Source: Eledone cirrhosa
Taxonomy: Eukaryota
Assembly (NCBI GenBank): GCA_964016885.1
Contig: OZ024741.1
Location: forward strand, 112,406,001-112,470,000
Reading direction: 5' to 3'
DNA length: 64,000 nt
The notes under the pieces are model-generated. The model made no database searches, had not been told where the DNA came from, and was given only the letters and a program-made list of their open reading frames with translations. Within the stretch, counting starts at the first letter, position 1. Each line of letters starts with the position of its first letter. Made by a program: the position numbers and the translations under genes. Positions 917 through 30,634 of the stretch are shown here, in pieces.

Positions 917-1957
917 ATTTGTTGTACATTTGCTTTTCTCATCGAACCTTAGTGAAAGTTGTCTTTTTTACTTAGTTTGAGAATAGCTAAAATCTACAAT
1001 TGGATACCCTGTCTAATATTACTAACCCTTAACAATTACGAAATTAGTCAAAATGTCTAACACAGGTTGCTTGGCTATAGTTACAAAACAATGACCATTA
1101 AACGGTCTTTAGTTAACATTGTTGTCTCTGGGCACCACAAATTTGAAAACAAACTTTAATAATTATGCCTCAATCAATAGTGGAGCCTATACTTCTGGAT
1201 TTATTAATGAAATAAATTTCTAACTAGTAAACTGCTTGCATATTTTATTGCCTCATCATAAAATATGCCTGATTCCTTTCATTACAACATCTAAATTCCT
1301 ATTTCCTTATATTTCCAATGTATTCAATGTAACCCGAAGCACAGAACTTATTTAAGTATAAATCTAAGCTGGCTGCCAAAGTAGAGGCAATTGGTTTCAT
1401 TGGATTGCTCCTTGACTAGTACTAGCAGTGATTGATAGTTTGCTGCTTGCAATTAGACACTTTAACCCTTTCATTACCATACTTCTCAGGAAAAACATTA
1501 CATATATGTTTCACTTAATTTTAAACATAATTATAAATTAGGAGCAATTGAATAAAATAACTGGCTTTTTAATGGTGTTTGGAACATCACTTAACATTTC
1601 GTAAATAAGATTATAATGGAAGGGTTTACTATAAATGTGAATACTTTTAAATAGGCAGTTCTGTATCATAAAATCAGGACCAGTTTCTGATAAGTTGGTA
1701 TCAAAAGCATTAAGTTAACAAAACAGCACTATAAATAATACTAATACCTACAGCTGTTTTTTTGTTTAATAATTTTACTTTTATTAACTTCATTTTCTAT
1801 ACATACTAACCGGAAATTATTCGGCTATTCTAAAGAGAACATTAGTCTCCTGATTTTGTCATAGTAAAAATTGCTCTTCTCAATTCACATGATGACATAA
1901 TTATCCTTGCATATTTTTTGCCCGTTGCAAGAGAATGTTTTTACGTACCACCATTAT

Positions 1958-2090
1958 GTCTTCCTGATTTCTATTGGTTGTAACGTTTTTTGAAATATTT
2001 ACTTCTGCATCTATAGATTGATATTCTCAGTTTCAGAAGATTCCATATAGGGTGAAAGCAGAAATTCTTTGCTTAAACTTAATCTGTACT
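1958..2090 (+). mobile_element. Penelope-like terminal-repeat remnant
   Basis: Homologous to the reverse complement of ~15055-15190; contains a hammerhead motif. Confidence 0.55.
2029..2079 (+). ncRNA. Type I hammerhead ribozyme-like motif, CAGAAGA core variant
   Basis: AGTTT-CAGAAGA-TTCCatataGGGT-GAAA-GCA..TGC-TT-AAACT; stems I and III pair, stem II is short. Confidence 0.6.
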
Positions 2091-2137
2091 AATAATAGAT
2101 ATTTACTCTATGGGTTTATACCTGCTTTTATATGTAT

Positions 2138-2138
<1 letters not shown>

Positions 2139-2173
<35 letters not shown>

Positions 2174-2484
2174 CGTCCGCTTTTCCCTGCTTGCAAGGGT
2201 GGGACGGGAACTGATTCTAGCTTGATTTCTACAGCTGGATGCCCTTCCTAACACCAACCTCATTTACAGTGAATGCTGGGTGCTTTTTTCCGTGGCACCT
2301 CCACAACCACTTTGCAGTGGAATGATATGGACCCCAATCCAATCATCTCATTTCTACAGCTGAGTAAACAGGAGCAATGTGAAATAAAGTCTCTTGCTCA
2401 AGGAAACAACACATCACCCGGTCTGAGAATTGAGCTCACAACCTTTCGATTGCAAGCAATGCTCTAACCACTAAGTCATGTGCC

Positions 2485-2488
<4 letters not shown>
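2139..2488 (-). mobile_element. tRNA-derived SINE family B with RTE-derived body and 3' tail
   Basis: Pol III A/B-box head (TGACTTAGTGG..GAGCTCAATTC), GTTGTTTCCTTGAGCAAGA segment, 31-nt tail identical to the RTE LINE 3' end, (TGA)n tail; second copy at 32611-32943. Confidence 0.85.
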
Positions 2489-2521
<33 letters not shown>

Positions 2522-2526
<5 letters not shown>

Positions 2527-2747
2527 GTGAGGAAGAGGCTAGCCAAGAGAGGGTGACTAGCAGAGGGGGTGAGTGAAAGTAAGAGGGAGAAGGATATAAG
2601 TAGTAATAACCACAAAACCCAAAATTTGAAGAGGGCTCAATAAAGATTGTGTATATATATATATACTACTTATATCCTTCTCCCTCTTACTTTCACTCAC
2701 CCCCTCTGCTAGTCACCCTCTCTCGGCTAGCCTCTTTCTCACACTTT
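2522..2747. repeat. 84-bp inverted repeat next to (TA)n
   Basis: Arms 2522-2605 and 2664-2747, two mismatches by eye. Confidence 0.85.
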
Positions 2748-3230
2748 CACTCACTCACTCTCTGCTACTCACCCTCTCTCCAACTTCATCCATCGTCCCA
2801 CACCGTACAAGATTCTTTCCTCGCTCACATCCGCACGGCCAGGATGTGTCTTTGCCTTCTCGTCAATATTCGCAAGTTCTTATGTTCGAAATGAATTATT
2901 GACTTGATTTTCTCATTTTTTCCTCTCTTTACATTGCCTCACCATTCATGTTTGTTTACATGTCTCTCTTTCTCCTCCCAACTCTTTTTATCCCAATAAC
3001 TTAATTTAGTTATTGTATCGCCCTAGCTGGAGGTATATAGTCTGTAATGCGAAGAAATGCATATGATGCCTAGTAGATATTCCTAACTTCCATTTCTAAT
3101 TCTTCATTTATTATACATAAATGCAACAACATAGCTCGCCATTTTTCATTTATATATATATGTGTGTGTGTGCCTGTGTATATGTGTATGCGTGTGTATA
3201 CATGTGTGTATGTATGCATGTGTGTATACA

Positions 3231-6200
3231 TCATCATCATCATCATCATTTTACGTCCGCTTTTCCCTGCTTGCAAGGGTGGGGTGGGTCTTATTCAGCA
3301 CAGCATCTCTCCACTCGCCACGGTCCTTCGTCATCTCCGCCATGAGCTTCAATGATCTGAGGTCTGTTCTCACCACCTCCGCCCATGTTTTTCTTGGTCT
3401 ACCTCTACCACGTCTTCATTCAACTGGCATTTCCTGGCATTTCTTCATCTATCGGTCATCCTCCATGCGCATCACATGTCCATACCACCTCAGTTTCCTC
3501 TCTCGTACACTACACTCTATCCCTCTCAGACACAGTTTCTCTCTCAACACATTCATGCTGGGTCGTTCACGCACATTTACACTGCACATCCAACGGAGCA
3601 TGCTTGCCTCATTTCTCTCCAACCGTCGCATATCCTCTGCAGTTGCTGCCCATGTCTCACAACCATGCAGCATTGCGCTCCTCACACAGGCATCATACAA
3701 CCGGCCTTTCGTACGCAGGGAGAAACCCTTCTTCATCATCAGAGGAAGCAGCTCCCTAAACTTCTTCCAACCCTTCCTTATTCTAGATACTATGGCCTCG
3801 GAACACCCTCCTCCCATGCTAATCTGATCTCCTAGGTACCGGAGCTATCCACCACTTCTATAGCGCCCTCCTGCATCTGAAAAATGTGTCTATCAATGCG
3901 ACTTCTACTGTCTAATTTCCCTGTAAATCTACTGCATACATATTTCTCCCTACCTGTTAGTTTGCCTGCTATCCCACTACATCTCTTGTGTACCCAGGAT
4001 CTGCATTGTGTACATTTTATAGAATTTATGCCAGTTCATTTTCTGCATATCGAACATGGCTATTTCCCTGACGGAATCAGAGTTTTGTCCTCTTTTCTAC
4101 TCATCAACACTTTTGTCTTAGCTAGGTTCACTCTCAGTCCTCTTCCTTCCAACTGCTGTTTCCATAGCCAGAATTTATTCTCTAGCTCCTCTACTGATTC
4201 TGCTATAAGAACCAGATCGTCAGCATAGAGAAGTTCCCATGGACAGCCAGTCTTAAACACCTCTGTTATGGCTTGGAGGACTATAATGAACAAGAGCGGG
4301 CTTAGGACCAAACCTTGATGTACTCCTACTTGTATCTGGAATTCCTCACTAAACTCCATTCCTACCCTGACTTTACTGAGAGTACCTCTGTACAAAGTTT
4401 GCACTGTCTTCACAAGCCATTCCTCAACACCTAGCTTCCTTAGGGACCACCAGATGACAGATCGGGGTACCCTATCAAAGGCTATCTCTAGGTCAACAAA
4501 AGCTAAGTATAGTGGCTTATTATTCTCTAAGAACCTCTCTTGCAATTGTATCACCAAGAAGAGGGCATCTGTTGTACTCTTCCCAGGCACAAAACCAAAC
4601 TGCATCTCATCTAGTTTGACCCTTTCTCTAATTAGTTGTGCTAATATCCTTTCTGCCACTTTCATAACCTGATCCATCAGTTTTATACCCCTATAATTGC
4701 TCCTCTCCAGAGCATCCCCTTTACCTTTGTAGCAATTTATGAGAACACTGCTGCACCAGTCTTTGGGTATGACACTACCATATATAGCCTGATTGAGGAT
4801 GCGTGCAACCAGTTTAGTGCCTACGTCCCCTGATGCCTTCAGCATCTCAGCAACTATTCCCGATGATCCAGCAGCCTTACCATTTTTCATTTCCCTAATC
4901 GCCTCTTGGACCCTATATTCGTCAATCTCAATAGCTGGTCCCTCTGTCGGATCTACTAAGGGTAATTTCTCTCTCTCCCATGCGTTCTCCACATTCATCA
5001 GTCTCTCATAATGACATTTCCAGGCCTCCTTTTTCTGATCATTCGTGACACTAAGTACACCGACATCATCCCGGACACATTTATCTCCAACAACATCCTG
5101 ATTTGCATTGACACACTGCCTTGCAATGTGGAACACCGTACGCCTCTGATCTTCCCATCGCAGAACATTGGCAAATCTCCTACTCTCCAACTCCCTGCGT
5201 GCTAAGTACACGTGACGTCTAGCTTCTCTGTTAGTGGCTGTATATTCTTCCCTACTCCCACCCTTTTTCCAAGCCTTCCATGCTAGTCTTTTGTCTCTAA
5301 TGGCCTTATCTACTGTGCTGTTCCACCACCAGGTCACTCTCTGTTTGGTTGGAGCTCTGCTCCAGCCACAAGTTTCATCAGTAGCCTGCAGCAAGTTGTC
5401 ACGTAAGAAATTCCAGTTATTATCTATGTCATACGTCTCTAAATCGACTTCTTTTTCGTCATATACATCTTGAAGAGCTTTCCTAAATTTGTATTTTAGT
5501 GAAGGCCTTTTAGCTTCCAGACCTTTCTTCTCCACACCTTCCTATATGTCTCATTCCATCTCTTGCTTACTGAGATATCACTAACGATTAACCTATGCTG
5601 TGGGGTACATTCTTCTCCAGGGTATGCCTTGGTATTAGACACTATCTGCCTGTCCCACTGCCTAACTAGTAAGAAGTCAATCTGGTTTATGTGCTCACCA
5701 GATTTGTAGGTTATTAGGTGATTGGCAGGTTTCTGGAAGTTTGTGTTGCAAATAGTCAATGTACCTGCATCACAAAATTCAAGAAGTCTCACTCCTTCTT
5801 CATTTCTTGAGCCGTAACCGTGCCCACCATGTACCCCAGTGTAACCATCCTAGAGCTGTCCAACATGACCATTGAAGTCTCCTGCTAGCATAATGATGTC
5901 TCCGTCCTCTGTCATTGCGGTTGTTTGTAAAAGTTGCTCGTAAAAGCAGTCTTTCTCAACTTTGCCTAGGCCTGCTTGGGGAGCATAGGCCGAGATGATT
6001 GTCAGTAGTCTCCTGCCTACAACTAATCTAAGCTTAATTATTCGATTACTTACTCGAACTACCTCTATTGTCTTATTGATCCATTTCTCAGCCAGGAAAA
6101 TGCCTACTCCGCCTAACCCATCATCCTTACCTACCCAGAATAGCTTATAGCTAAGACGTTTGCCTACGACTAGTCTCGCAGAGGCACCTCTCCATCTCAC

Positions 6201-6450
6201 CTCTTGCACGCAGCACACATCCACATGCCTTCTCTCCAGCATCTCCGCTATTTCAGCAGATCTACCTCTGAGAGTGCCAACATTAAGTGTTGCAACTCTG
6301 AGATGCGACGTCTTCATATTTTGTTGTTGTTCCTATTTGTTGCTGTGCTGATAAACGTTTTGGCATTGTTACACTGATTGGATGCCCCTCCTAACACCAG
6401 CACCACTTTACAGCATGGGCTGGGTGCTTTTATTTGTGCCACCAGCACTA
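3231..6450 (-). mobile_element. Near full-length RTE-clade LINE, disrupted
   Basis: APE endonuclease (TLNVGTL, VQEVRW, AYAPQ, GDFNGHVG, IDFLL, QHRL), RT (NYRGIKL, QFGF, FVDLEIAFD, HQG..LSP, YADD), (TGA)n tail, 5' UTR motif. Confidence 0.95.
3290..6317 (-). pseudogene. RTE EN-RT ORF broken by stops and frameshifts
   Basis: Collinear ORF pieces 5850-6317, 5496-5792, 4060-5535, 3449-3817. Confidence 0.9.
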
Positions 6451-6754
6451 GAGAGGATGTCTTACTAGACTCAAGGGCCCTCTCTACCCCTCCATTTTAC
6501 AGCATGGTCATTAAAAAAACAACAAAAAAACTTATTGACACGACACCACACACACACTCACACACCAACACTCATGCATACAAACCACAAACACACACAC
6601 GCCACTCACATACCAACACTCATTCATGCATACAAACACACACACCACTCACAAACACACACATATATATTACCGACAGTACTGATACAAATACAAAATC
6701 GAAATCATGTCAACTGTTGACTTTTCCCAGTCCAGTTCAGTTTTTATATAATAA

Positions 6755-7105
6755 TAATAATAATTGTTTGCTTTACGCTGGTAATGGTGGTGGTGGTGGT
6801 GAATTGTGTCAGTATGGTGATGGTGGTGGTGGTGGATGGTCCGTGATGGTGGTGGCAGTTGTTGCTGTAGTTGTTATTGTTGTTGCTGTTGTTGTTGCTG
6901 TTGTTGTTGTTGTTGCTGCTGCTGCTGCTGCTGCCGTTGTTGTTCTTCATTTCACTGATGCTGCAGACAATGGTGTTGATGCTGTTATTGTAGTCGCATA
7001 TATATAAATACATACATACATACACATTCAACACAGACAATGGTGTTGTTGCTGTTGTTGTTGCTGTTATTGTTGTTGTTGTAGTTGTAGTTGTTGCTGT
7101 GTTGA
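6755..7105. repeat. Compound trinucleotide microsatellite (TAA/GGT/GTT/GCT)
   Basis: Directly visible. Confidence 0.9.
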
Positions 7106-7809
7106 AATCTGGTCGCATCCACTGAGATATACATATACATACGCATATACACACACATATATATATACATATACACATACATACATCAAAAGAGTTAGCA
7201 GTATGTCAACAGCCAACAGGTCAGCCACCTTAGATAGAGTAATGAGTTATGTGGTGATGGTGGGGAGCGAGTGTAGACGTTATTGTTATTGTGGTGGTGG
7301 GGGTCAGTGAGATGTACAAGTTCATAGTTCACTTATCTCTTTTCCTCTCTCTTCAAAATTTTGAATTTATGGCCTTTTGCAATGGTGGACAAGTATATAT
7401 ATATATATATAATATATAAGAAGCAAAGAAAATTTCAATGATAAGAAAGATTTCCTGGTGGAAGTTCAGGTGTACTCAGGGTTGGTATCCAGTTTCGGGG
7501 TGAAAATCCAATTAGAGAATCCAACGAATTTTGAGAGGTCCACGTAAGCATTGATATATATATATGTATGTAAAATGTAAACAGAAATAACAACACATAT
7601 ACTAATGAACATGTTTTTACATTAAACACAGAGGGACATCTGTAAATGATAATAACAATAATAGATATAAATGTACATATCTCTATTGGTCTCATAATTT
7701 TTATTATTTTTTTTATTTCCTTGTGTGTTGCTGCTGACTCTAGCAGAGCCCAAGAAAACACGTCTTGCCTTAACAGCTGCCGGGTTTCTATATATGTCCA
7801 TATATATAA

Positions 7810-10640
7810 AAAGAGTCAGGACCCCGACAGCTGAGCTACTCTAAGTATTGAGTACTCTGGTGCATTATGGTCCACCTGGTATTTTACCACACCCACTTTA
7901 TTATATATACACACATGCCTATGTTGCATGAGCAGCGACTCTGTCTGCTAATTCTACTAATGGGGCTTTGATAGAAGGTAAGTTCTTCCTTAAACCGACT
8001 ATTTTTAAGGGGCCTGGTTGAAGTGCAGTGCATTTTCCATGCATATCTTCTCATTAGCAGATAAGAGTGATATATTCTTTACCAAATTTTTAGTTATATT
8101 CCTTTGGTAGTTTGAGTATTGGTAGATGTAATGTAAGTTTTCATTGGGTTTCTGGAAGGGGTAGTGCAGTTGGTTCACCAAGTTTAGGGTTACGTCTAAG
8201 AAGTTGGTACAAGTGAGGGACGTCTGTAAGGTAACCTTAAATCCTAAATTCTGGAAGAACTTGATGAGATATGTTTGTGATCCTAGTCCATACTATTGGG
8301 GTTGTATCCAGTAAAAGTTACATTGTCAAACCTTATGCAGGAGAATGCTGCCCATGCAATTTATGTTCTGAGGAGACAATGTAAATGTTATACACCAATT
8401 AACTAAAAAAGATGAACTTGTGACCTTGTGCAAACAGTGGATTTACAAAACATACCTCAACTTCAGACCTCTCAATCCCAGGTGTAAGACACTTTTTCCA
8501 CACTGCAATAGACACCCGAGGTTATCATAGTACATTTGCATACACTATTATATATCCCCACTGGCAAACATATACTTAGGTCTACAGAGCAGAATTGCAC
8601 AAATGAGCACAATTCCACACAAACTTTATCAGCAGACTTCACTAGCACCTATAAATACATACAGAACTGGCTCTTATTAAAGCACTTGAGCCGACAGTGT
8701 CACACCAAAACATACATACCATCACTAAACAAAATTAATAGCACATGAAACCTGTACATAAGCAACTCATCTTGCACATTCAACCTTACCCAAGCTGCAC
8801 ACCCAACCCTTCAACCACATACAATTACTCCTAAAGAGGTACGTACCACAACATTTTTTATGATAGTGACATTAAAATGACAACACCCACACTAGCACCC
8901 CATCACAGAAATATAAGTACCTAATTGCATGTGGACAGACCCCCGTGACTCCCCTTCGAACACACATATGTACCAAAGAAAAACATAGGCCTCTTACATT
9001 GTACTAGCAGAATGGCCCGGCGTTGCTCGGGCTTCTAAACGTTAGATTGGCATGTTTATCCCTCCTTTCTGAAACAGAACAGAGAAGTACGGAATACCTC
9101 GGCCTGAGGATGGTGTCTACATTTTGTGCTTATAAAAAAAATTCGTCGTAGATTACCAGGGGTTTAACTTAATTGGGTGCCTGAGAGTAAAATGTTCAAC
9201 CCACGAAAGCCAAGACGATAGGGTTAAATAAAAAAGGCCTTCGACAAACGGAACATGAATTTGTTGTGCTATGGTACAATGAAAGTTACAGAGCAGTAAA
9301 CATGTGGGACTGCAGTGGTGGAGAGCATGAAGAAATTTAGTTGGATACTTTTAAGGTTACAAAAACCTACCCAATCTGATATAGACCGAACTGTTATATT
9401 GGATGCTGAACGTTTCATAATTACTATTGGGGTCACCATCAACAATTTCAAAGGATGTACGTTTAAGTAGGGATAATATAGTCTATAAAGAGAGGAAACT
9501 CTTTCAAAATACTAAAGAGTTGTCTTTCTTGAACATTGTAGACAAAATTGCCGAACTGAACTGACAAAAAGGGCTTAAAGTTTTAGTGAAAAAACAACGC
9601 CTTTAACGACAGAAAATTGAAAAATAAAAGCTGCAGTTAGTATCTTTAGACCGCAAGGAATATATAAATGCAAGTTTGAAGTCTATCGGAGTAGAAATGT
9701 GGATTTGTAAAGACTTTGCTAAAATTAGGACACACAGACGATCTCAGTTTTATATATATATGTATAGATAATACATAGTAATTACCCACTCCATCTATTC
9801 CACTGTAAATACATGAAATATAATCACCACAACAACTCCGTAGTACCACAAAATGTGATTTTCGTAAGAAAATCAAGTCTAATGTGACTTGTACTAGCGT
9901 AGTTATAGTGAATAAACTTGAGCCAAACTTCCACTAGATTTTACTTTAATAGCACTGGCTTGTAGGCTAAAAGTGTATACTCTGGACTTTTTCATCATAT
10001 TAAACACTTATTGGATTATTGATTTCATTGACGCAGTTGTCATCTATGTTTTCTTTTAAGATATATCTGTGTAAAGTTTCGTTTTTAAAATACAAATTAT
10101 TAAGAAAGTCCAGGATTAGCTTATTTAAATAATATCCAATATCTTCAACTTAGTCAACCGTTGTCATACCACGTAGGTGTGGGCATTGATGAACCGGCTG
10201 GCTGTTCCTTGTTTTGACAGATATATTTCCCATTTTGTCAACTTAGACTATTCTTTGATTGGGGCAATTTGCTGCCAGCTATGACGCCAATTCAATAGAC
10301 CTGTTGTCTGAAGATCACAATAACCATACCTAGACACACATACATCCTAATATATTTTCTGAATAAATATAATCCCACCCCCTTTGCATGATTATTCTAT
10401 TTCAAGTTGACCACGCAGATACACTCGGATGCACACATACATATAAACACTCACTAAGCCAGAGAAACCGCACCCTCTGATGATACACATAGTCAACCAT
10501 CAAAGTCTTCCATAATCAGTCTGGAACTGGCTGTTGAAATGGCAATAGCTCAGCCGTCGGGTTCCTGACTCTTTATAACATAACCATACTTATCTACCTA
10601 CAAGTATCGAGTACTCGGTTAGAGTAATGGTCCTGATTTA
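7810..10640. mobile_element. Degenerate Penelope-like element with an inverted RT segment, interrupted by a Helitron
   Basis: Minus ~7960-8280 translates LIKFFQNLGFKV..TNFLDVTLNL..PNENLHYI, aligning to the thumb of the 16284-18649 ORF; plus ~8330-8450 gives KPY..CNLCSEE..DELVTLC (EN C-terminus); ~29-nt motif at ~7810-7838 recurs inverted at ~10546-10574. Confidence 0.55.
9004..9768 (-). mobile_element. Non-autonomous Helitron
   Basis: Minus strand starts A|TCTATAC.. and ends with hairpin CCCGAGCAACGCCGGG then CTAG|T; its 5' ~170 bp match 20230-20397. Confidence 0.85.
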
Positions 10641-10744
10641 TATATGTGTGTGTGTATATATATATATGTATATACACACACACACACACACACATACAGA
10701 CATACATACATTATTACTACTACTACTATTATTATTATTGGTAG

Positions 10745-11020
10745 ATTGGCAGATGGTCGGACGCCATGCTTTGCAGCATAGAGTTACGCCCCTTTATGAT
10801 CTGAGTTCAGATCCCGCCGAGGTTCACTTTGCCTTTCAGCCTTATGTGGTCAATAAAATAAAGTACCAGTCACGCACTGGGGTCGATTTAATCGCCCCCC
10901 CCCCCCCCCAAAAAAAAAAAATTGCTGGCCTTGTGCCTATATCAGAAATCATTATTATTAATCCCGCCGAGATTAACTTTACCTTTCATCCTTACGGGGT
11001 CTTGTGCCAAAAGTAGAAAT
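10745..11020 (+). mobile_element. SINE family A plus an internally deleted partial duplicate
   Basis: B-box GAGTTCAGATCCC, body and tail; second partial copy ~10960-11020. Confidence 0.8.
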
Positions 11021-11029
11021 AATAATTAT

Positions 11030-11111
11030 TATATATATTATTATTATATATATATATAATTATTATTATAAATATATATATATATATATCTACACACACA
11101 TATATACACAT

Positions 11112-11159
<48 letters not shown>

Positions 11160-11360
11160 TCATATATACACACACATATACATATATATATAAATACATA
11201 CATATATGTATACATACACATATATATATATATACACACACATACATATATACATATATACACATACACACACATACATGTATATATATGTATACACACA
11301 CACACACATACATATATATATATACACACAAACACACATACATATATATATATATGCATA
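11030..11360. repeat. (TA)n/(CA)n compound microsatellite
   Basis: Directly visible; source of spurious YI/HT ORFs. Confidence 0.95.
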
Positions 11361-11739
11361 TGAAATGATATACAAGATGTTTACGTTTAATACTCATAAA
11401 CACACCAGTTTTGTTATGAATGTTTATTATACATAAACATATCACAGATGCCTTCATACACTCCCCTATAATTAACCAGGCTATGTTAAAGCTACTCCTA
11501 ACTAATCCTAGCTGGTCAAATAAGCACCCCAAGCTGGTGCTTTATATGCAAAATTTCATATAAGCTTTAGCTTATTCTTGGTTCAACATTGAGTTAGTAA
11601 ATAATATAATAATTAAATTATTGTGTACAATGCTCAGGTGCACTACAATATCACCAATGATGGATAAATATCCAGTGACAGCTCTGACATTCTCACTGGC
11701 TACTGAAATAGCTGTGGCATACTCACAGTTTAAAACATT

Positions 11740-12631
11740 CATTGCGAAACTGTTATATGTATATCATAATCTATAAAGCTCAGTGTATGGACATGCTCCT
11801 TTGTTATAGAAATCTACGATATAGAATTACTTCAATTGAAATTTACAATTCAGTATTCGGAATAGCTTCGATTGCGTCTTGGCACATATCATTTTTTCAA
11901 TTTCACCCACAATTACGCAAAAAATAGATAAAACTCAATATTTTACGATTTTTCTCTCTCATTTAAACTGCTAAACTCTTTCCATTGCCATTCAAAATCT
12001 ATACAACTTCATACTTTCTGCTACTTTCTCTTTCCAAGCTTGATGGTGATACTGTCCGTTTTATTCTCTGATATCATCTGCTACCTCTATCTACAACCCA
12101 CACATTTTGCTACTTTCTCTTTTATACTTCAAACTTACTGATTTATTTCCAAACGCATACAAACACACACTCACTTCAAATGATAAAAAAACATTTAAAG
12201 CAATTAAACAACGTGCGTGATTTATAACCACACTAACTTTTAGTTGCTTCAAACTTAATGATTTATTTAACACACACTCACACATTTAAAGCAATTAAAC
12301 AACGTGCGTGATTGCCGAAGAGAGAGAAGAGAGTGAGAGGGAGAGAGAGAGAGAGAACGTTTATTATTACATAAAGTACCAGTAATGTACTGGGTAATTG
12401 CTGGCCTTGTGCCAAAAAAGTAGAAACAATTATTACATTTCATACGAAACGACAATTATTCAAAAGCAACAGATACATTTATTCAACAACAAGCGATAAA
12501 TCTTTTTTAAAACCTCTCAACGAACGTGGATTCTTATAGACTTTGAGTCGAATCGGTTTGAAATTGTGCAAATGTATAAACATGGAATATGTGCACACAC
12601 ACAACAACAACAACAATCTGCCTTTTATAGA
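11740..12631 (-). mobile_element. Probable Helitron 5' fragment
   Basis: Right end CACACAC..CTGCCTTTTATAGA|T resembles the 5' termini of the other two Helitrons; left boundary approximate. Confidence 0.45.
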
Positions 12632-12646
12632 TAATGATAAACAATA

Positions 12647-13015
12647 ATATCCTCTATGAGGTCACTAAACCTGCTAGAAACAGCAACTAACTCTCCCCCA
12701 TACCACACCCCTCCCTACTGTCTTAAATTTAGAAAACATATCTTCTATGAGGTCACTAAACCTGCTAGAAACAGCAGCTAACTCTCCCCCATATCACACC
12801 ACTCCCTACTGTCTTAAATTTAGAAAACACATATCCTCTATGAGGTTACTAAACCTGCTAGAAACAGCAGCTAACTCTCCCCCATATCACACCACTCCCT
12901 ACTGTCTTAAATTTAGAAAACACATATCCTCTATGAGGTCACTAAACCTGCTAGAAACAACAGCTAACTCTCCCTCATATCACAACCCTCCCTACTGTCT
13001 TAAATTTAGAAAACA
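12647..13015 (+). repeat. 93-bp minisatellite, about 4 units
   Basis: Unit ATATCCTCTATGAGGTCACTAAACCTGCTAGAAACAGCAGCTAACTCTCCCCC..CTGTCTTAAATTTAGAAAACAC. Confidence 0.95.
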
Positions 13016-13303
13016 CACAGACAACCATGCAGAACAACTCCATCGCAGCTCTGTTGTTCGGCTGGCATCGTCTACGCGCGTGTTGCGCAAGTACTGTGAA
13101 ACAATAAATTTCAACACTTTTTTGCACAGAGATAATATCCATAGGCGAAACTACAATTGTCACTGCTGGCGCAGCTCCTGCTTCCAGGTCTGCAATTCAT
13201 TCACCCAGTGCCTGGCAGACAAAAAAGTGCTGCCATAAAATGGGTGGTGCAACCTAACTTTGGTAACTTAATGACCCCGAGCAACGCCGGGCTTTAATGC
13301 TAG
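13016..13303 (+). mobile_element. Helitron 3' fragment
   Basis: Hairpin CCCGAGCAACGCCGGG at 13276-13291 followed by CTAG|T. Confidence 0.7.
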
Positions 13304-13479
13304 TTATACATAAAAGTATTGTATATGCTTTCATATACACACCTGTTACATATATAAGCCTGATATCTCAATCTCTAATTATAGTTAAAATATTCTCAGC
13401 TTGCAGCTAGACATTAATTATAGTTAAAATAGCAATGTCATGTGAAAATGGTTGTGCCATTTCCCCATTATTCTCATAT

Positions 13480-14040
13480 GGAAGGGAGGAGACTGAGTTA
13501 AGTGTAAGAATTGCAGAAGCTATTGCAGTAATGCACCAGCTTTAGCATTTAGTTATCAGAAGAATGAAGGTATGTGTAAAAGCCAAACTTACTTTCTTCA
13601 ATTCAGTGTTTGTACCAATCCTTATCTACAGTTATGTATTTTGGGTAATGACTGGAAGAAGATGATTGTGAATATGAGCAACCAAAATGAGGTTCCTCTG
13701 AAGAGTCTTTAGAGTAATGTTACTCGATAGAGTTTGTAGCTTGGAAATCAAGGAATCACTCCAGGTAGAGCTGCTATATCTTTGAATGGGAATATCAGAG
13801 TTCTGATATTAAGAACATGTGGTCAGAATGTCTAAGCAAAGAACTGCTGGACTATTCCAGCTGGAATGAGACCCGAGGGTAGACCCTGAGCAAGATCTTT
13901 GGATAATATCCATGAGCCCAGCTGGTCTCACTTGAGGATTCAGCCAGATTATTTGGAGACAGTTGCTTCTGACAGGATCCATTGGAAGACATGCTTGATA
14001 ACTCTGCTCCCACGACCCTCCCAAGAATAAGTGGATGAAA
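13480..14040 (+). mobile_element. Old RTE LINE 3' fragment (second RTE family)
   Basis: Homologous to 23610-24240(-) and ~49620-49900(+); degenerate RTE C-terminal motifs. Confidence 0.7.
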
Positions 14041-15008
14041 AAGGGTTATTATAAGATGTCCACTTCCATAGTCATTGTGTGACTTCAGTCCTCTGCAACA
14101 GCCTCAAGAATAATTTTGTTCAGATAAATGTTTCCCTCTTTAGTCATGTCACATAGTATATAAATGTTTTTATGAAGATTGATTTACCAGAAAGCTTTGT
14201 AAACTAAGGGAATAGAGTTTTACCATGTATTTTGTTTTTTCCTTACCACAGTTTTAGACTAGAAATGGTGTATAGGCCACATAACTCTTAATTATTATAG
14301 TTAGAACTAGCAGTGTATCCCGGCGTTGCACGGGTAAGAACATTGGTAATAGCCACCGCCAATGAGAAACGTTTATTTATGAGTGCCTGTTAAAAACTCA
14401 CGAAAATATACCGACAGGAAACTTGTTTTATTTGGAGAAAATTAAGAAGTTGAAAGCTGTCTATGTGCATTGTTCATAGAAATATTCTTTTCATACTCCT
14501 CTGTTTTGGCCTTTTGAAGTAAATGTGAAAGAGAAAGTCACAGGTTAAGTTGGCAGAAGGTTTCAGTGTCATAGCAGTAAGGAGTAGGCTACTTACCTCA
14601 AAAGTTCATTCACACTCTTTCCACTAAGTTACTCTTTCTCCCTATCCTTCTCGGTGCAGTCCCATGCAAATTTCTCGCGTAGGCCTGGTGTAGATTTGCA
14701 CCCGATCCATCTACCCGATGCACATGTCCACTTTGTACGGCTTTTGAAGGAAGGAGTGAAAAGCAGTATGTTGTTCGGTATTATTACGAAAAGGTGTAGC
14801 AGAGAATCCCGCGTGAATTAACAGCTCGGGAGGAAACTGCTTACCTCGAAGATTCATTCGCCATCGTCCTTGTCAATGCTCCGTTTACTTTGTATTTGTT
14901 GGTCTACAGTTAGATGAATGGCACACAAAGGGTTAATGTTTATTGGCAAGAAGTTCTTTGAATAATAAAAGACGGGTTAAAGCGACCTACAATGTATTTG
15001 TATATATA

Positions 15009-15053
<45 letters not shown>

Positions 15054-15068
15054 AAAATAACAGATTAA

Positions 15069-15119
15069 AGTTTAAGCAAAGAATCGCTGCTTTCACCCTT
15101 AACGGGATCTTCTGAAACT
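15069..15119 (-). ncRNA. Type I hammerhead-like motif, CAGAAGA variant
   Basis: AGTTT-CAGAAGA-TCCCgttaaGGGT-GAAA-GCA..TGC-TT-AAACT; paralog of 2029-2079. Confidence 0.6.
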
Positions 15120-15226
15120 AACAAAGTCAATCTGTAAACGCAGAAGTGGATATTTCAAAAAACGTTGCAACCGGAGGAAGACAGGAAGACTATACTTTGG
15201 ATTTTAGTCTTCAAATTTATTATTAT

Positions 15227-15286
<60 letters not shown>

Positions 15287-15291
<5 letters not shown>

Positions 15292-15972
15292 AATGAATAT
15301 ATGAGGGATGAACATCTATACAATTATAGAAGTATTCGGATTGCAAATGACCAAGTTAGCTAGGTTGAAAGAATACTAATTTAACATAATATGGTTTGCA
15401 AGTCTCGATTTAAAATAATAAATCAATAAAAATAACAAACCTATATTGGCAATGGCCGTGATACCTGGACACATTTTAAATCTGTTTGACAAATTTCAAA
15501 TTTGTTTCGCAACGATTAAGTGAAAGTTACTGTGCTCTTCTGCAGGAATCCATGCGTTGAGCTAATTTTCTAGTCTCATAATACCGACTGCTATTTTTAG
15601 CGGCACGGATATGAGACGAGTTAGGCGCTGACACACGTGCGTTCAACAACACATGTTTCTCAGTCTTCTTAAGCATTTTGAAGTGGAAGGTACCAATTTC
15701 TGGATACCTGCAGAAGAGCACAGGAATAGTAACTTTCACTTAATCGTTGCGAAACAAATTTGAAATTTGTCAAACAGATTTAAAATCTGTCCAGGTATCA
15801 CGGCCATTGCCAATATAGGTTTGTTATTTTTATTGATTTATTATTTTAAATCGAGACTTGCAAACCATATTATGTTAAATTAGTATTCTTTCAACCTAGC
15901 TAACTTGGTCATTTGCAATCCGAACACTTCTATAATTGTATAGATGTTCATCCCTCATATATTCATTTGTAT
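15287..15972. repeat. ~265-bp inverted repeat with ~150-bp spacer (Penelope-type inverted terminal repeat)
   Basis: Arms 15287-15552 and 15701-15972, near-identical apart from a 6-nt indel; lies between (TA)n tracts. Confidence 0.9.
15703..15799 (+). ncRNA. Hammerhead-like motif, CAGAAGA variant, with long loops
   Basis: GATACCTG-CAGAAGA-GCA..TGC-GAAA-C..G-TC-CAGGTATC with a perfect 8-bp stem I; mirror copy on the minus strand at 15460-15550. Confidence 0.55.
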
Positions 15973-16040
15973 TACACGGCTCAGAAATATTCCCTTCTTT
16001 GAGCTATTTAATTGTAAAAGACTATTTCGAGTTTATAACT

Positions 16041-16112
<72 letters not shown>

Positions 16113-16283
16113 GAGGTGAGTTTTATTGTAGCACAATAAAGCAATGCAAATATCGGATAAGTAGCACTCTACAGTTTGTAGGACTGGAGTATAAATAATA
16201 TAAGATTAACTTGCTCCTTGACTGTTTGACCGCTAACTCTCATATCGGATACCCTTGATGGTCTCTAATTTTTCTTCTATAAC

Positions 16284-18649
16284 ATGGATTATTACAACAT
16301 AACAACTTCAATTAAAGACATTCCTATACCTGGTAAATCTGAATTCACTAAACTTCTGATTGAAAAAATTGACTCTCTTGTGAGAAGGCTTAGATGGATC
16401 GCTTTTTTCCATGACCAGCGCCAAAAAGGAAATTTCTATACTAAGGAACATAACAATTTTTATCATTTATTTAACTCTAGAAGAAATCCTCCTTCCAACA
16501 AAAATCTAGTTCAGTTTGAGGAAGAATTAACTAATATTATAAGAAGTCTTAAATTCAAGAGAAACCCTTATAGAGGACAGGAGCACCGTATAAATCTCAG
16601 GAATACGATTTTAAACCTTAATTCCTCTAAAAATGTCTTAGTCCACTCCGACAAAACTAATAATTTATATGGCGTATCTAAAGATAAGTATAATAACCTT
16701 ATCCTTAAGGAACTAAGGAAGAATTATCGTAAAACTAACCATGACAATTTGGAATCTATAAACTTGGAAGCTTCTGAGATTATGTCTAAACTTGGCATTG
16801 AGAAAAAGACCGAACCATTCTTCCCAAGAACTCCGAGAATAAATCTCAAGGATCATAAAAGTAACTTTCGAACGGAACTGCCTGTTAGACTAATCGCCCC
16901 CTCTAAATCAGATCTGGGGGTTGTTAGTAAAGCCATCTTGGATAGAATTATCCCACAGGTTCGTTCTAATTGCTCTATTTCTAACTTAAATTTATGGATT
17001 GGTACATCTGAAGTAATTGGCTGGTTCAATAACCTGAATAAGAAAAACAAACAAAAATTTATTCAGTTTGATATTGCCAGCTACTATTCTTCTATTTCAC
17101 CTTCACTACTCAACAACGCTCTATCTTTCGCATTTAAATATTCTGACATTACCACAGATGAACTTTACATCATTCTCACCGCAAGAAAAACTATCTTAGA
17201 ATTCAACAATGAATATTGGACTAGAGCTGATACTTCCAACAATTTTGATATCACAATGGGTGCTTCCGATTCATCGCAATTGACTGATTTGATTGGTATT
17301 TTTATTTTGAATTCTTTAAATCGGAAAATTCCTCAACTTCGCGGTGGAATTTATCGTGACGATGCCCTCTTTACTGTCTTAAACTGCAACTTAGTTAACC
17401 TTAAATATACGTGATCTATTTAAGCACCATAACCTTAAAATTGAATTTGATAACAACGTCAAACTAGCTAACTTCTTGGATATATCCCTTAATATTGACA
17501 CTGGCCTATATTACCCTTACCATAAAAACAATGAGAATCTAAATTATGTTAATTTTAAATCTAACCACCCCACTAACGTTAACAATGCTATAGTCAGTAA
17601 TATTGAAAAAAGAATCTCAAATCTATCCTCTAATAAAGATATCTTCAACACTAATGTCAATCACTATAATAATGCGCTTTCCAAAGCCGGTTATCCTGAT
17701 AAAATTAAATATAGTAAAGAAACCAATCATCGAAGGTCTTATAGTAAAATAGTTAATTATGAACATTCCAATAACTTAAATAAAAGACCTAGATACAAAA
17801 ATATAATTTGGTATAATGCTCCTTTTTCTCTATCTATTAATAATAATATTCCTAAACTATTCTTTAGGGCCTTAGATAAATGCTTCCCTCCCTCACATAT
17901 CTATAGTAAAATCTTTAACAAACATACAATCAAATTTTCTTATTCCACCACTTCCAACATCTCTAACATTATCTCTAAACACAACAATAAAATATTAAAT
18001 AATAAATTACATCCTTCCAACACTGAGCGTCATAATAATAGCAACAGTAATCCCGACGTCATTGTTAACTCTAGGCTAGATTCTGTAAATTTAAATACGA
18101 CGTCAAACGTAACTTTGTTGAATGTTCATAATACCAATCTAAATCAGGAAACTATAGTTCCTATCGTAAATAACTTCTCCAATCCAATTCCTTCTATAAA
18201 TAATACTAGGTCACTTGTTAATAACTGTTAATTTCTCTAATCGTAATTGTAATTGCCCTGTTAGAACTAAATGTCCTCTTAATAACCAATGTCTTGATAA
18301 AAACTTAGTGTATGAATGTAAGGTTATAACTGATACGAATTCTTTTACCTATTTCGGTTCCACTTCCACTTCCTTTAAAGCAAGATTTTATAATCACAAA
18401 TCGTCTTTTAAATACCAACTTAAAAGAACTAACACGGCACTCTCGGAACTCATATGGTCCTTGAAAGACAAAAATATTAACTATAACATCTCTTGGAGGA
18501 AGGTTTGCACCGCGTTTCCTTACCTGAATTCTTCCCTATCCAGAACATGTAATCTCTGCCTAGCCGAGAAATTTACCATTATATCTAATTTTAATTCTAT
18601 AATAAATAGACGCACGGATTTATTTTTGCTCTGCTTGCATAAATCATAG
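16284..18649 (+). pseudogene. Penelope-like RT and GIY-YIG endonuclease, two frameshifts (~17405, ~18225)
   Basis: SDKTNN, FDIASYYSSI, MGASDSSQLTDL, YRDD, FLDI; CxCx5Cx5C; LVY..YFGST..FKARFYNH; CNLCLAEK. Confidence 0.9.
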
Positions 18650-19653
18650 AACATTCCATAAAGTATGCAGCTAATATCTCAATACCTAATTAGTTTAAAA
18701 TCTTCTTTCCTCAAAGGCTTTTATATCTTTTACAAATATACCCATCTTTCTACCTTATTTCAGTATTATATATTATATAATACAATTTACTCATTCTATG
18801 TTGTTGTGATCCTCTATCTTTCTTCTTTTTATCATTTTTCCTTTCTTCCCTTTTTCTCTTTTAATTTCTAATCTCTAATGTGTAACTTTTACTTCCCAAT
18901 TACTTCTCAATTCATATTATTACTCACTACAGCATTATCCATTTTTCCATTTTTCCTCATATTATTGGCCATTAAAACTATACTTTTTTAAATATACTAT
19001 AATATTACCATTAGAAAATTTTCGTAAACATATATACTTTTTGACGTTAGATATTTTTTCTTCCTTAAATTTTCTTTCGTGCTCGTTTTAAACCTACTAT
19101 TTACTTTTACATATTACAATACATAAAAACAAACTTAAACCCTAACTAATTCCTCTAAGTTCATAATTCATTTATTCTTCTCCTTCTTTCATATTATATC
19201 CTTAATATCATTAATATTTTAATTTTAATAATACATATTAATAAATTCTTTTTTTCGCACATATGAAACCCTTCAATATACAAACCTTAATTTAATACTA
19301 TTCTTAATTCCTTTTTCTTCATGCTTAAACCTCATTAACTTTTAATTTCTAAATCTTTTAAATTATCTATTATCTTCCAATGGTTTTTTAATTTCTCTCT
19401 GTGAGACAATGTTTTCTCAGTTGTAAAGGCTATTTCTCTCTCTCTATCATTCATTTCTCCTCCTCTCTCCTCCTCCCTTCTTATACTCCTACCCCACCAT
19501 CCTTTATTTTTCTTTCTTCCTCTTCCTTACATTTTCCTATTCCCCACCTCATTTTTTTCCCAATCTCATATATCCATCTTAGTTTATTTTTCATATGTTG
19601 ATTTAAAATTTCACTGCTCACAAGTGTTTTTTAAGCTTCATATCATGTCTCCC

Positions 19654-19724
19654 TATTTTATCTGATGAGAACACAGATATCATCCCATGATGATATTTGT
19701 TTTTGAAATGCGCATAATAAAATA
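19654..19724 (+). ncRNA. Minimal type I hammerhead ribozyme
   Basis: TATTTTAT-CTGATGA-16-bp stem II-GAAA-TGCGCA-TA-ATAAAATA; perfect stem I and palindromic helix III. Confidence 0.85.
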
Positions 19725-19759
19725 CTTGGAACTCTTTTAACCATCTTTTGATCTTATAT

Positions 19760-27199: not shown

Positions 27200-30100
27200 T
27201 CTTACTTACTTGTACTTGTGTCGACATTCACTCTGGACGGGTTGAGCCGGCTTTTTCCCTTATCCTGACGGCATCCCGAACCATGGCAGCCCACGCACGA
27301 CGGTCTCGGGCTAGGTCACTGGGGATAGCGAGCCAGTCATGGTTCCATCGGCGCAGGCCGACCACCTGCAGACCGTAGAGTTCGGAGAGGTCCTCCTTGA
27401 TCATTGTTGCCCAGGTCTTCAGCTGCCCGCCAACGCTCTTGCGCCAGTTAGGGAGTGGAGGTGGGAGGAGAATATCGCAGATCAGCTCACCCTCAGGGCA
27501 CCGGGATGCATGACCAAACCATCTCAAGCGCCATTGCAGAAGCACTGAAGGAAGGGGGTCGAAGATTCAGGCAAAGACAAAGACTGGTGGTAGGTACCCG
27601 ATCAACGCTTCGGCAGTGAAGAATGCGGCGGAGACAGTCATTGTCGAAGACCCCAGCCCTCGTTGATCGACTACCCTCATAGGCCATGTTTCACAGCCAT
27701 AGAGGAGGATAGGGCGAACGACGGCCTGGTAGATTCACCCTTTGGTCGTCGAGGTGATCTCTCTTCTGTCCCACAGACACCGCTGGAGGCGCCCAAAAGC
27801 AGATCTGGCAGCACCTATGCGACGCTTGACCTCAGCTGCACCCTGTGCCGTTGGAACCACTGTTGAGCCCAGGTAAACGAAGGACTCCACATCCTCCAGG
27901 TCTACGCCCTTGAGAGATATTGGCTGCCAGGCATCAGGCGAGACCAGTGACGTCATGACCTTCGACTTGGCGGAATTGATTCGTAGACCAACAGCGATAG
28001 CTGCAGTGTGCACCCTTTCGAGAGCACCTTGTAAATCAGTCCCGTTAGTGCCCATCAGTACGATGTCATCCGCGTAGGCCATGTCTGTCACCACGACCCC
28101 TCTCCTGACCTCTATGCCCGAGTAATCCCGGAGCGCTGTGTTGAGAGTGTAGTCAATGGTGTAGTTAAAGAGAGTTGGCGATAGCGCACACCCCTGCCGA
28201 ACACCGGTCCCAACATCGAACGACCCTGTCTCTCCACTATAGACCCCCACTCGGGCCCGAGTCGACCGGTAGTAGCCTTGTATGAGATGAAGCAGCTTCA
28301 CTGGGATGCCGTCCGCCTGCATTATACACCATAGGGCTTCCCGATCTACCAAGTCGAAGGCAGCCGCAAAGTCGATGAAGCAGAGGACGGTAGGCTGTTG
28401 ATGTGCCCACCATGGTTCCAGAAAACGCCGGAGAATGAAGATTTGATCAACGCACCCCCTCCCTGGACGGAAGCCGCCCTGAAAAAGACGGGTACGGACA
28501 TGACGGATGGCCTGGAACCTCTTCAGCAGAAGAATTGTGAAGGTTTTGGCAGCAACGTCAATTAAACTGATACCCCTGTAGTTGGAACACAGTTTCCTGT
28601 CGCCTTTTTTGAAGAAGGGTAGGAGAGTTGCCTCGCTCCAGTCACCAGGGAACTGCTCCGTCGCCCACACCGAGGAGAAGACTCAATGGAGCCAAGTTGC
28701 GAAGACATCATGCTTGGCCTTGTAGACCTCAGCTGGAACGCCATCGTCGCCCGGCGTCTTGTTGGTCCAGAGATGTGTCAGAAGACTACGTACCTCCTCG
28801 ACCGTTGGAGGGGCAGTGCTGCACCCATATTCTTCTCCGGAAATCGGCACGTAGGTTGGCGTGGGTAGTGGCGGGTGGTTGAGCAGCTCGGAGAAATGGT
28901 CCCACCATCTGACTAGCCGGTCATTAAGATTGGTAATGACTACCCTGTTCCGATCACGGATCATCTCGCTGATACCCGTACTGCTTCAGCTGGCTGACTT
29001 CACCAGTTAGTAGAGCTTGTGCGAGTCACCACAGGCTGCTGCCCTCTCCGTCTGCTCCGCAAAATTGTGCCAGTGTACATTCCGATCGGCCCGAATAGCC
29101 TGAGATGTGCGACGTCGGAGATCTCGAAGATTGGGTGCACCCTCGAGTCGAGCCTCTCTTGTCCTCTCCGCGAGTTCAAGAGTGCCGCCAGAGATCCAGT
29201 CCCGATGGCGTCTTCGGATCGACCCGAAATGCTCCCTGGCCACCTCAACTGTCATCGCCCTGAGCGCGTGCCACTCCTGCTCCAGTTGCTGTTCCACTTC
29301 GTTACTCAGCATTTGGAATCGGTTTCGCAGCTCTAGCCAGAAAGCATTTCCAGCATCAAGCTTGAGTCACGAGATGTCGATCCTTTTCTGGCGGTTGGGA
29401 GGAGGTTTCGCTTGCAGCCGCAGATGAAGGGTTATTCGAATAAGAGTATGGTCTGACCCATGCTCACTGCCCGTATCAGTCCCCCGATACGCACGCGAGC
29501 CTATCACTGAGCTGGCCCACTGAGATCTGACCAGGATGTAGTCAATCTGATTGGCCGTTCTTCCGTCATTGGATCGCCACATTATGAGGTGACGCCGAAG
29601 ATGTTGGAACCGGGTGTTGGTGATGATAAGACGATTGGCATCCATGAAGGATACGAGCCATTCACCATTGTCTCAGCGTACGCCTAGGGTGAAGCGTCCT
29701 AGAATATGCCGTGTTGTATCATCAGCCGGCTCCATCCGCGCATTCCAGTCCCCAGCGACAATGAGAACATCACTGGAGGAGACGCCATCCACGGTTGTTT
29801 GGAGATCGGCATAGAACTATAACTTGTCCGCCTCGTCCGCATTGAGTGTGAGAGTGTAGAGGGAAATTACGCTGATGTTGAAGATTTGACCCTTCAATCG
29901 AACCAGCACAAGTCGATGTGAGTTCGGCTGCCACGCCAGCAGAGCCGCTTGCGCATCGGGGCTGAGAGCTACAGCGACCCCATGAAAGCCACTGTTGTCA
30001 GTCACGCCACTGTGGTACAAGTGGTAGGAGATGTCCTCGCCAGGAACTTTGATCAGAAGATGACCAACATCGGGAAGTCGAACTTCTGAAAGGCAAGCGA

Positions 30101-30305
30101 CCCCAACGCAGTACCTGTGCAGAGCCTCCATTGTAAGTGCCTGGACACCGTCATCACGAAGTGTTCGGACGTTCCAGCATGCCACCTTCAATTCCTTCCT
30201 TCTGAAGAGCGGGACTACTGTGGGAGCAGTCTGTAGAGCCATAGCGGTAGGAGCACTGATGCTTTGCATTGCGTTCATAGCGGAAAGGCAATTCGTATTC
30301 ATAGT
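27200..30305 (-). mobile_element. GC-rich near full-length RTE LINE (SR2-like), disrupted
   Basis: EN (ACWNVRTL, LSEVRL, QIDYILV, SDH), RT (NYRGISL, FIDFAAAFD, RQGCALSP, YADD), C-terminus WRKSVGGQLKTW..GLRRW; tail CAAGTACAAGTAAGTAAG. Confidence 0.92.
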
Positions 30306-30634
30306 TCGTATTTGTAGGATTCATGGAAGATGAATCCTACAAGCTGAATCACAGGCTGAGTTAGTTATAAACATTCCCTTGCTCTACCAAATGTATTTTA
30401 TTGCCATATAATTGACATATCTATGGTTTCCCCTGAGCCTTTGTTTGGCATATTTAATACCAGTTTTTCCATGGTGGCATGGGATTGATGGGTTGTGTCA
30501 GACCAAGTTATTACTGACTCAAAACTATTGTCCTCCAAGACTGGTCAGATTTGCATGCATCATTCTTGGTTTTGCATGTGTTCTACAGCTTGATACCCTG
30601 CCTGATACCAAATACTTTGTTTTATATATATATA

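Follow-up and report, generated by a model that had tools for sequence, protein, structure and literature searches.

Does an adenine in place of the uridine at position 4 of a hammerhead ribozyme core mark a decaying copy, or can it be the settled state of a natural repeat family? The question was raised by a stretch of 64,000 nucleotides from the genome of Eledone cirrhosa (assembly GCA_964016885.1, contig OZ024741.1, positions 112,406,001 to 112,470,000, forward strand), hereafter called the window. A first-pass annotation of this stretch had described hammerhead motifs in two unrelated repeat families, both reading CAGAAGA instead of CUGANGA, and had linked them to the terminal repeats of Penelope-like elements (PLEs). 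We find that A4 is the family state of both families and not the result of decay.

The window was scanned for type I hammerheads with position 4 left free, and 15 block-shuffled windows served as control. Four motifs were found (Table 1), all with the core CAGAAGA, and none in each of the 15 shuffles. In both families the three helices are arranged around the core in type I order, and the positions C3, G5, A6, G8, A9, G12, A13, A14, the A15.1-U16.1 pair and H17 are kept. Only U4 of the CUGA uridine turn is missing, both families reading A4 there. The hammerhead topology first proposed for the four motifs was therefore present in all of them, and three of the four positions given for them were correct, while the minus-strand motif of family 2 has the extent listed in Table 1 and not 15460-15550. 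Both family-2 motifs are arms of one inverted insertion, so the window holds only three independent insertions.

The family-1 motif starting at 2029 has U.U at 10.1/11.1, a helix II of 3 bp and a long helix III, with the cut predicted after UU at 2074. Its minus-strand counterpart has the same core and stems as the terminal repeat in the full-length elements at loci L122 and L130. When these two window copies were compared, loops II and III and one base of helix II differed, while the core and helices I and III were the same, which confirmed what had been noticed at first sight. In family 2, the plus-strand motif has a G10.1-C11.1 pair and a long loop II, its helix III is lengthened by a 20-nt duplication, and the cut is predicted after UC at 15791. 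In the minus-strand arm, helix I is truncated to 4 bp and loop II has a 6-nt deletion. An Rfam scan of the window (E <= 5) returned 98 matches and no hammerheads. Since a canonical CUGAUGA motif at 19654 was likewise missed, this blank is uninformative about A4. Descriptors of the form CUGANGA do miss these motifs, as the annotation had stated, and a published core search of PLEs was indeed formulated as 'cuganga' (Craig 2021).

The state of position 4 was then counted by pattern searches in 3.0 Gb of genome. The family-1 pattern gave 27,321 matches with A4 and 352 in which one of the other three letters stood there; the reversed control patterns matched 1 and 2 times. Of 330 pattern matches for family 2, 100 were listed, and 95 of these had A4. 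A looser family-2 pattern for letters other than A gave 27 matches, only one of which (L337) was a family-2 copy; the other 26 belonged to related families. No U4 subfamily was found inside family 1, where T4 copies were scattered among A4 copies, and contigs of four sequencing runs of unspecified kind showed no letter besides A at this position. Near-identical contigs of organisms B (five) and C (three) were left out of account. When 60 evenly spaced stretches of 10 kb were scanned, 44 motifs were accepted, 35 with U4, seven with A4 and two with C4. Six of the seven A4 motifs were family 1 and one was family 2, while two shuffles of the stretches gave 1 and 0. The pattern counts show A4 to be fixed in both families, as had been suggested from the window, and together with 29 A4 copies out of 30 in a set retrieved by flanking sequence (described below) they rule out decay at the level of individual copies.

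Sixteen stretches around paired family-1 motifs were inspected, most of which contained pieces of an open reading frame (ORF) for reverse transcriptase (RT) or a C-terminal GIY-YIG endonuclease. At L122, L128 and L130 a single ORF, with RT followed by C-terminal GIY-YIG, was found between direct terminal repeats. The element is 3.26 kb long and carries the motif in both the 5' and the 3' terminal repeat; at L122 the two copies lie 3,259 nt apart on either side of the ORF, the ATG follows the start of the 5' motif after about 200 nt, and L130 is a tandem of the element. Insertions were found at (TA)n targets and include inverted 5'-truncated copies. A Pfam scan of four proteins matched no family, and the RT and GIY-YIG domains were therefore assigned from motifs, namely RWR, DKT and CxCX5C at L122, and CxCX5C, CxxC and CxH at L128. 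The Hydra clade is diagnosed by an RWK-type motif, DKT, a CxCX5C linker, and CxxC and CxH around a conserved E/N (PMC8557442). The closest outside protein, P0001, was 56% identical. Judged by these motifs, the autonomous element whose terminal repeat is family 1 belongs to the Hydra clade of PLEs. Naiad was ruled out as its origin by the C-terminal position of the endonuclease, and Neptune was rejected in favour of Hydra by the protein motifs. The canonical hammerhead that is a trait of Hydra terminal repeats is absent from family 1, where the core has A4.

The proposed link to Penelope terminal repeats holds for family 1 but not for family 2, which is not a repeat of the PLE next to it. A linked upstream PLE ORF was found in none of 60 family-2 loci, and the ORF matches at six loci came from the window's own neighbour or from fragments whose position or orientation was unrelated. 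The neighbouring PLE has a canonical hammerhead of its own, which together with the unlinked loci excludes family 2 as its repeat. Family-2 units were found head to tail at a spacing of 502 nt with one type I hammerhead per unit, and the unit joint was present in contigs of run X1. Among 73 distinct copies, the 5' ends were scattered over the unit and six copies were longer than the reference span, while the 3' ends clustered at about 240, 330 and 390 nt past C3. This shape suggests insertions made by a PLE from multimeric or circular RNA. Elsewhere in the loci, L188:8749-9682 holds four canonical hammerheads 311 nt apart and an inverted copy, an ordinary retrozyme-like tandem.

Family 1 consists of at least three layers, designated c (CAGAUGA, 25 copies aligned), a (27 copies, including the one at 2029) and b (34 copies, including the one at 15119). 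Their majority sequences were compared after 13 gapped and 7 low-majority columns had been set aside. None of 35 core and helix sites differed, whereas 20 of the 99 sites lying in loops, in the flank or at N7 did (one-sided Fisher test, p=0.0013). The difference persisted when the constrained sites were compared with the flank alone (14/84 changed, p=0.005) or with loops plus N7 of the same motif (6/15, p=0.0003). The sole core change among the layers was at N7, which is a free position. It weighs against these counts that subfamilies b and c were initially selected by patterns which fixed the core, and retrieval was for this reason repeated using the upstream flank only. In this flank-only set, two rows of which were deleted or truncated within the motif, A4 was found in 29 of 30 copies, C3 in 28, G5 in 27, A6 in 29, G8 in 26 and A9 in 29, while N7 was T in 18, A in 11 and G in one.

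Covariation of the stems, which the annotation had named as a check, was seen when family 2 was compared with its U4 and C4 relatives, where two-sided changes are found in the outer pairs of each of the three helices, but no compensatory pairs were seen inside either A4 family. An alignment of 12 sequences (family 2 and relatives) had 85.5% of 179 cells paired, with 17 cells changed on both sides. None of 500 shuffles reached the same pairing score and slid controls gave 25-38%, in an alignment where the inner pairs are fixed by the pattern, related sequences can beat shuffles, and the window row is misaligned at the duplicated helix III. Among 35 sequences placed in a tree, the copies with A4 formed one clade, which also took in L337. 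Its sister group was mostly U4, so that A4 is derived in the family-2 lineage. The site counts, the flank-only set and the alignment with paired changes all fit the earlier proposal of selection rather than decay. Several low-copy relatives of family 2 (L317-L343) have CCGA cores, and those families among them which mix C and T at position 4 fit a C4 master decaying at CpG.

The places where family-1 copies begin were also counted. A G directly before the motif (genomic letter T) was found in 1,226 exact matches, and in all 30 inspected copies of this kind the upstream repeat was missing and nothing was shared further upstream. A or C stood before the motif in 984 matches, 16 of 29 inspected being truncated; G starts were thus about twice the A and C starts together, in an AT-rich genome. 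Initiators have a known consensus, and copying of the cap can add an extra G. The hotspot at the motif is likely a capped transcription start at an initiator-like site, where the G would be a copy of the cap. A spliced exon ahead of the G-start copies was rejected, since the 30 copies had no upstream sequence in common. A pyrimidine tract and AG before the motif resemble an acceptor, as described for Drosophila Penelope, and splicing may occur there. At two recurrent junctions other repeats run into the tail of family 1, one lying 27 nt beyond the predicted cut (L079, L099, L102, L047, L285 and L307, six loci) and the other 24 nt beyond it (L070, L114 and L268, three loci). They represent either chimeric families or a preferred target.

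What the A4 motif does can be approached from these observations. We give about even chances to the reading that in both families it is an attenuated, possibly protein-assisted, self-cleaving ribozyme. Transcription of family 1 would begin with the motif's first base, so that the 5' strand of helix I would form the capped end of the RNA. Since uncut RNA is what is reverse-transcribed, and the cap would be required for translation, a hammerhead able to fold as a monomer at the capped end of a messenger and template would need slowing, which A4 could provide. The mutated U-turn would be the counterpart of the dimer-dependence of ordinary PLE hammerheads, which are weak and of dimer type (PMC4209133). 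Residual slow cutting would keep G5, G8, G12 and the helices under selection, while family 2 would be copied in trans by a PLE enzyme from multimeric or circular RNA. In hammerheads the chemical step falls to G12 and G8, and the pocket takes its shape from the CUGA turn (PMC6155905). A hammerhead with U4C, though weaker in vitro, still supports viroid infectivity (PMC3088659), and a PLE hammerhead has been described as protein-assisted, with uncut RNA as the insertion substrate (PMC11167929).

Several points weigh against attenuated cleavage. Firstly, in a deep mutational scan all single mutants of the CUGA turn had low activity (PMC9901934). Secondly, in predicted folding the hammerhead was the minimum-energy fold in one of 17 constructs (L144, a family-2 copy with a short helix III, 61% of the ensemble). 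The hammerhead fold of family 1 lay 2.1-5.6 kcal/mol above the minimum in young copies and up to 11 in an old one, and the window's family-2 copies were also not minimum-energy hammerheads. A U4 relative had its hammerhead fold 5.5 kcal/mol above the minimum; the nearest-neighbour model behind all these values omits the contacts of the hammerhead core. Thirdly, copies starting at the predicted cut site were not in excess. For family 1 there were 104, against 95 at four bases and 161 at 20 bases upstream; on inspection 29 of 30 cut-site starts were without the core, as were 6 of 12 and 19 of 20 control copies, respectively. In family 2, four of 470 copies started at the predicted cut. A canonical control family likewise had no excess (8 cut-site starts, 12 at the control position), and we therefore take uncut templates to be general and this proxy to be silent on cutting by A4 cores. 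Genomic copies of both families run through the predicted cut site. Fourthly, the 5' strand of helix I overlaps the likely initiator and could be conserved for that role. Lastly, the association of A4 with a long helix III is only suggestive. It comes from a survey of 17 families with at least two off-centre hits in 2.0 Mb of loci, enriched for both A4 families, in which A4 was found in two of five long-helix families and in none of 12 with short or palindromic helices (p about 0.07, by hand). Helix III of the U4 families in the survey was palindromic in nine, short in three and long in three.

The low activity of U-turn mutants would also fit a motif that does not cut and is kept, as a fold or as mere sequence, for a different task: binding the element's own protein, belonging to an internal promoter where transcription begins, or serving in translation or packaging. 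We think this somewhat unlikely, yet it is a serious candidate. Copies stem from uncut RNA, catalysis is dispensable for PLE insertion in vitro (PMC11167929), the family-1 motif is located at the copy-start hotspot, and a role of the hammerhead fold itself in helping translation initiation has been put forward (PMC13725137). However, all unpaired catalytic positions are kept and only N7 and the loops vary, which is the pattern of catalytic constraint. Near the family-2 motif there is no start hotspot, the 73 starts being scattered, and a promoter role fails there.

It is improbable that something makes up for A4, such as A7, contacts between the loops or A-to-I editing of A4 itself, so that the ribozyme would run at near-canonical speed. 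Each family includes older members reading CAGAUGA beside a larger majority with CAGAAGA, a parallel shift from U7 to A7. Positions 4 and 7 are in contact in the full-length hammerhead structure. U4 is described as interacting with the phosphate that links A6 to N7 (PMC3088659). However, A7 is found in U4 families too, pairwise mutagenesis gave no rescue inside the turn except by a C3-G8 swap (PMC9901934), and a fast monomeric ribozyme at the 5' end of the RNA is hard to reconcile with over 1,200 copies that extend to the first base of an intact motif. Very little credence is given to A4 having killed the ribozyme and left a neutral relic in master elements too young to decay; compensatory helix changes are absent within either A4 family, just three family-1 subfamilies could be compared, and elements lacking canonical hammerheads amplify well (PMC8557442), but the 35 constrained sites stayed unchanged beside the 14/84 flank sites (p=0.005) and 6/15 loop and N7 sites (p=0.0003), and helix III of family 2 varies in length yet keeps its closing pairs.

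As an outgroup we used 77 Hydra-type loci from marine metagenomes (drawn from the best 80 of 207 confirmed). They contained 46 sense-strand motifs in 38 of the 77 loci, 44 with U4, one with C4, one weak with G4 and none with A4. Helix III was short or palindromic in 45 of the 46, and UU sites were recurrent, as was a U.U pair of letters where helix II begins. The UU site, which is that of family 1, had been called atypical; this did not hold, since UU recurs in the hammerheads of this genome, in the marine loci and in published PLE alignments (PMC4209133, supplement file 2), and family 2 has UC. Two loci may be mentioned here. Behind a Hydra-type ORF in a marine metagenome, L550 (Ga0163179_10120825) has a C4 hammerhead at about 1725, and L212 has, at about 4890 and downstream of a PLE endonuclease 51% identical to that of family 1, a hammerhead-like motif whose core has U3-A8 and whose helices II and III are both long.

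In folding models of a young family-1 copy, the core CAGA of the capped form is predicted to pair with the strand behind the cut site, and in the read-through form this strand would pair upstream as a 9-bp distal helix I. For a natural U4 copy the best predicted fold is 1.2 kcal/mol less stable, a small and model-dependent effect. A wider reading, which we regard as doubtful, would join these results. Position 4 would be a tuning knob in Penelope-type elements, and lineages that acquired a stable helix III would have moved from U to C or A, to A at least twice independently here. The outcome would be an active but throttled purine-4 ribozyme, which would be part of the reason why family 1 is the commonest autonomous carrier of an A4 or U4 hammerhead seen. 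In the capped 5' copy A4 would let the core pair downstream of the cut, and in the read-through 3' copy that strand would be occupied, so that only the 3' copy could fold.

The features of the window are collected in Table 1. The family-1 fragment around the 2029 motif ends against an AT-rich/ATC microsatellite. The protein of the neighbouring PLE is 42% identical to the family-1 protein over 368 amino acids, and one (TA)n tract is common to this PLE and the insertions of families 1 and 2. The canonical hammerhead of this PLE, which served as internal control, was absent from the annotation and escaped the type I scan through its palindromic helix III.

Table 1. Hammerhead motifs, their carrier repeats and other features of the window (positions are those of the 64,000-nucleotide stretch).
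Feature	Position	Strand	Remarks
Family 1 (older subfamily a), type I hammerhead motif	2029..2079	+	core C3-A4-G5-A6-A7-G8-A9 = 2034-2040
Family-1 fragment, 5'-truncated, terminal repeat only	1728..2135	+	extent of BLAST match, 30 genomic copies
Family 1 (young subfamily b), hammerhead motif	15069..15119	-	C3 at 15114
Family-1 inverted insertion, minus-strand terminal-repeat piece and short plus-strand piece	15049..15230	.	flanked by two (TA)n tracts
Family 2, hammerhead motif	15703..15799	+	C3 at 15711; helix I 8 bp
Family 2, motif of inverted 5'-truncated arm	15464..15546	-	C3 at 15542
Family-2 repeat, about one non-coding unit (~500 nt), (TA)n at end	15549..16043	+	
Family-2 copy, inverted 5'-truncated	15287..15552	-	96.6% identity to plus arm
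Separate Hydra-clade PLE	16110..19745	+	RT and GIY-YIG ORF broken into three frames, 16269-18649
Canonical CUGAUGA hammerhead in 3' repeat of this PLE	19654..19724	+	palindromic mini helix III, UA site
Broken endonuclease/RT ORFs resembling a long interspersed nuclear element (LINE)	3449-6332	-	which we take to be RTE
Broken LINE-like endonuclease/RT ORFs	27735-30320	-	which we take to be RTE
Tandem repeat, four copies of 93-bp unit	12647-13017		95% matched
Long inverted repeat	2548-2720		weak microRNA-hairpin score below gathering threshold; probably repeat end
Long inverted repeat	53762-53864		weak microRNA-hairpin score below gathering threshold; probably repeat end

As far as can be judged from genomic copies, a natural A4 hammerhead core in PLE-type repeats is real and goes beyond the published variants found. 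No natural U4A hammerhead was met in the literature consulted; figures, supplementary lists or a survey of PLE variants outside that scope could show one. U4 has been treated as invariant in hammerhead descriptors, and U4 mutants are slow in vitro. A purine fixed at position 4 in a recently active autonomous element with tens of thousands of copies, and independently in a second family, means either that the core is more tolerant than assumed and that PLE hammerheads are undercounted, or else that the fold is conserved without cutting, and either outcome bears on the function of hammerheads in PLEs. A natural U/C/A series on one scaffold, directly testable with short RNAs, is offered by family 2 together with its relatives.

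Among known systems, family 1 is closest to the PLE and Hydra hammerheads (PMC4209133; PMC8557442), with which it shares the type I order and the location on the sense strand of the terminal repeat. The A4 motifs resemble PLE hammerheads also in the weak base of helix II, the UU, UA or UC sites, the inverted 5'-truncated copies and the (TA)n targets, but differ from them in A4 for U4 and in a long non-palindromic helix III in place of the minimal dimer-type one. Canonical hammerheads have been called universal in Hydra elements, in a study whose core search was 'cuganga' (PMC8557442), and the PLE core variant found in the published text consulted is U3-A8. Natural core variants of hammerheads in general include U4C, U3-A8, A6C and insertions, and are described as rare (Perreault et al. 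2011, PMC3088659). The A4 motifs are like these in that the core is changed while the helices are kept, and U4C affects the same position and is also present in the family-2 relatives; unlike them, purine-4 is not named in the text of that paper, and the family in which A4 is fixed has at least 27,000 matches. With Poseidon PAc of Anolis (PMC11167929) the A4 families share copies that end at a small number of internal sites past the hammerhead and that are made from uncut RNA, but PAc belongs to a different PLE clade and its hammerhead was shown to cleave with protein, while the A4 families are known from sequence. Family 2, finally, is like the metazoan retrozymes of the kind without long terminal repeats (non-LTR retrozymes; PMC7229834; 10.64898/2026.07.22.740005), whose mobilisation by PLEs has been proposed. 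Both are non-coding, low in GC and arranged head to tail, with one type I hammerhead per unit and copies that start anywhere and may exceed one unit. Family 2 differs from these retrozymes in its unit of about 500 nt, against 170-400 nt with a canonical core in the published ones, in its A4 core, in being known from genomic copies, and in that its copies are mostly dispersed and have inverted arms.

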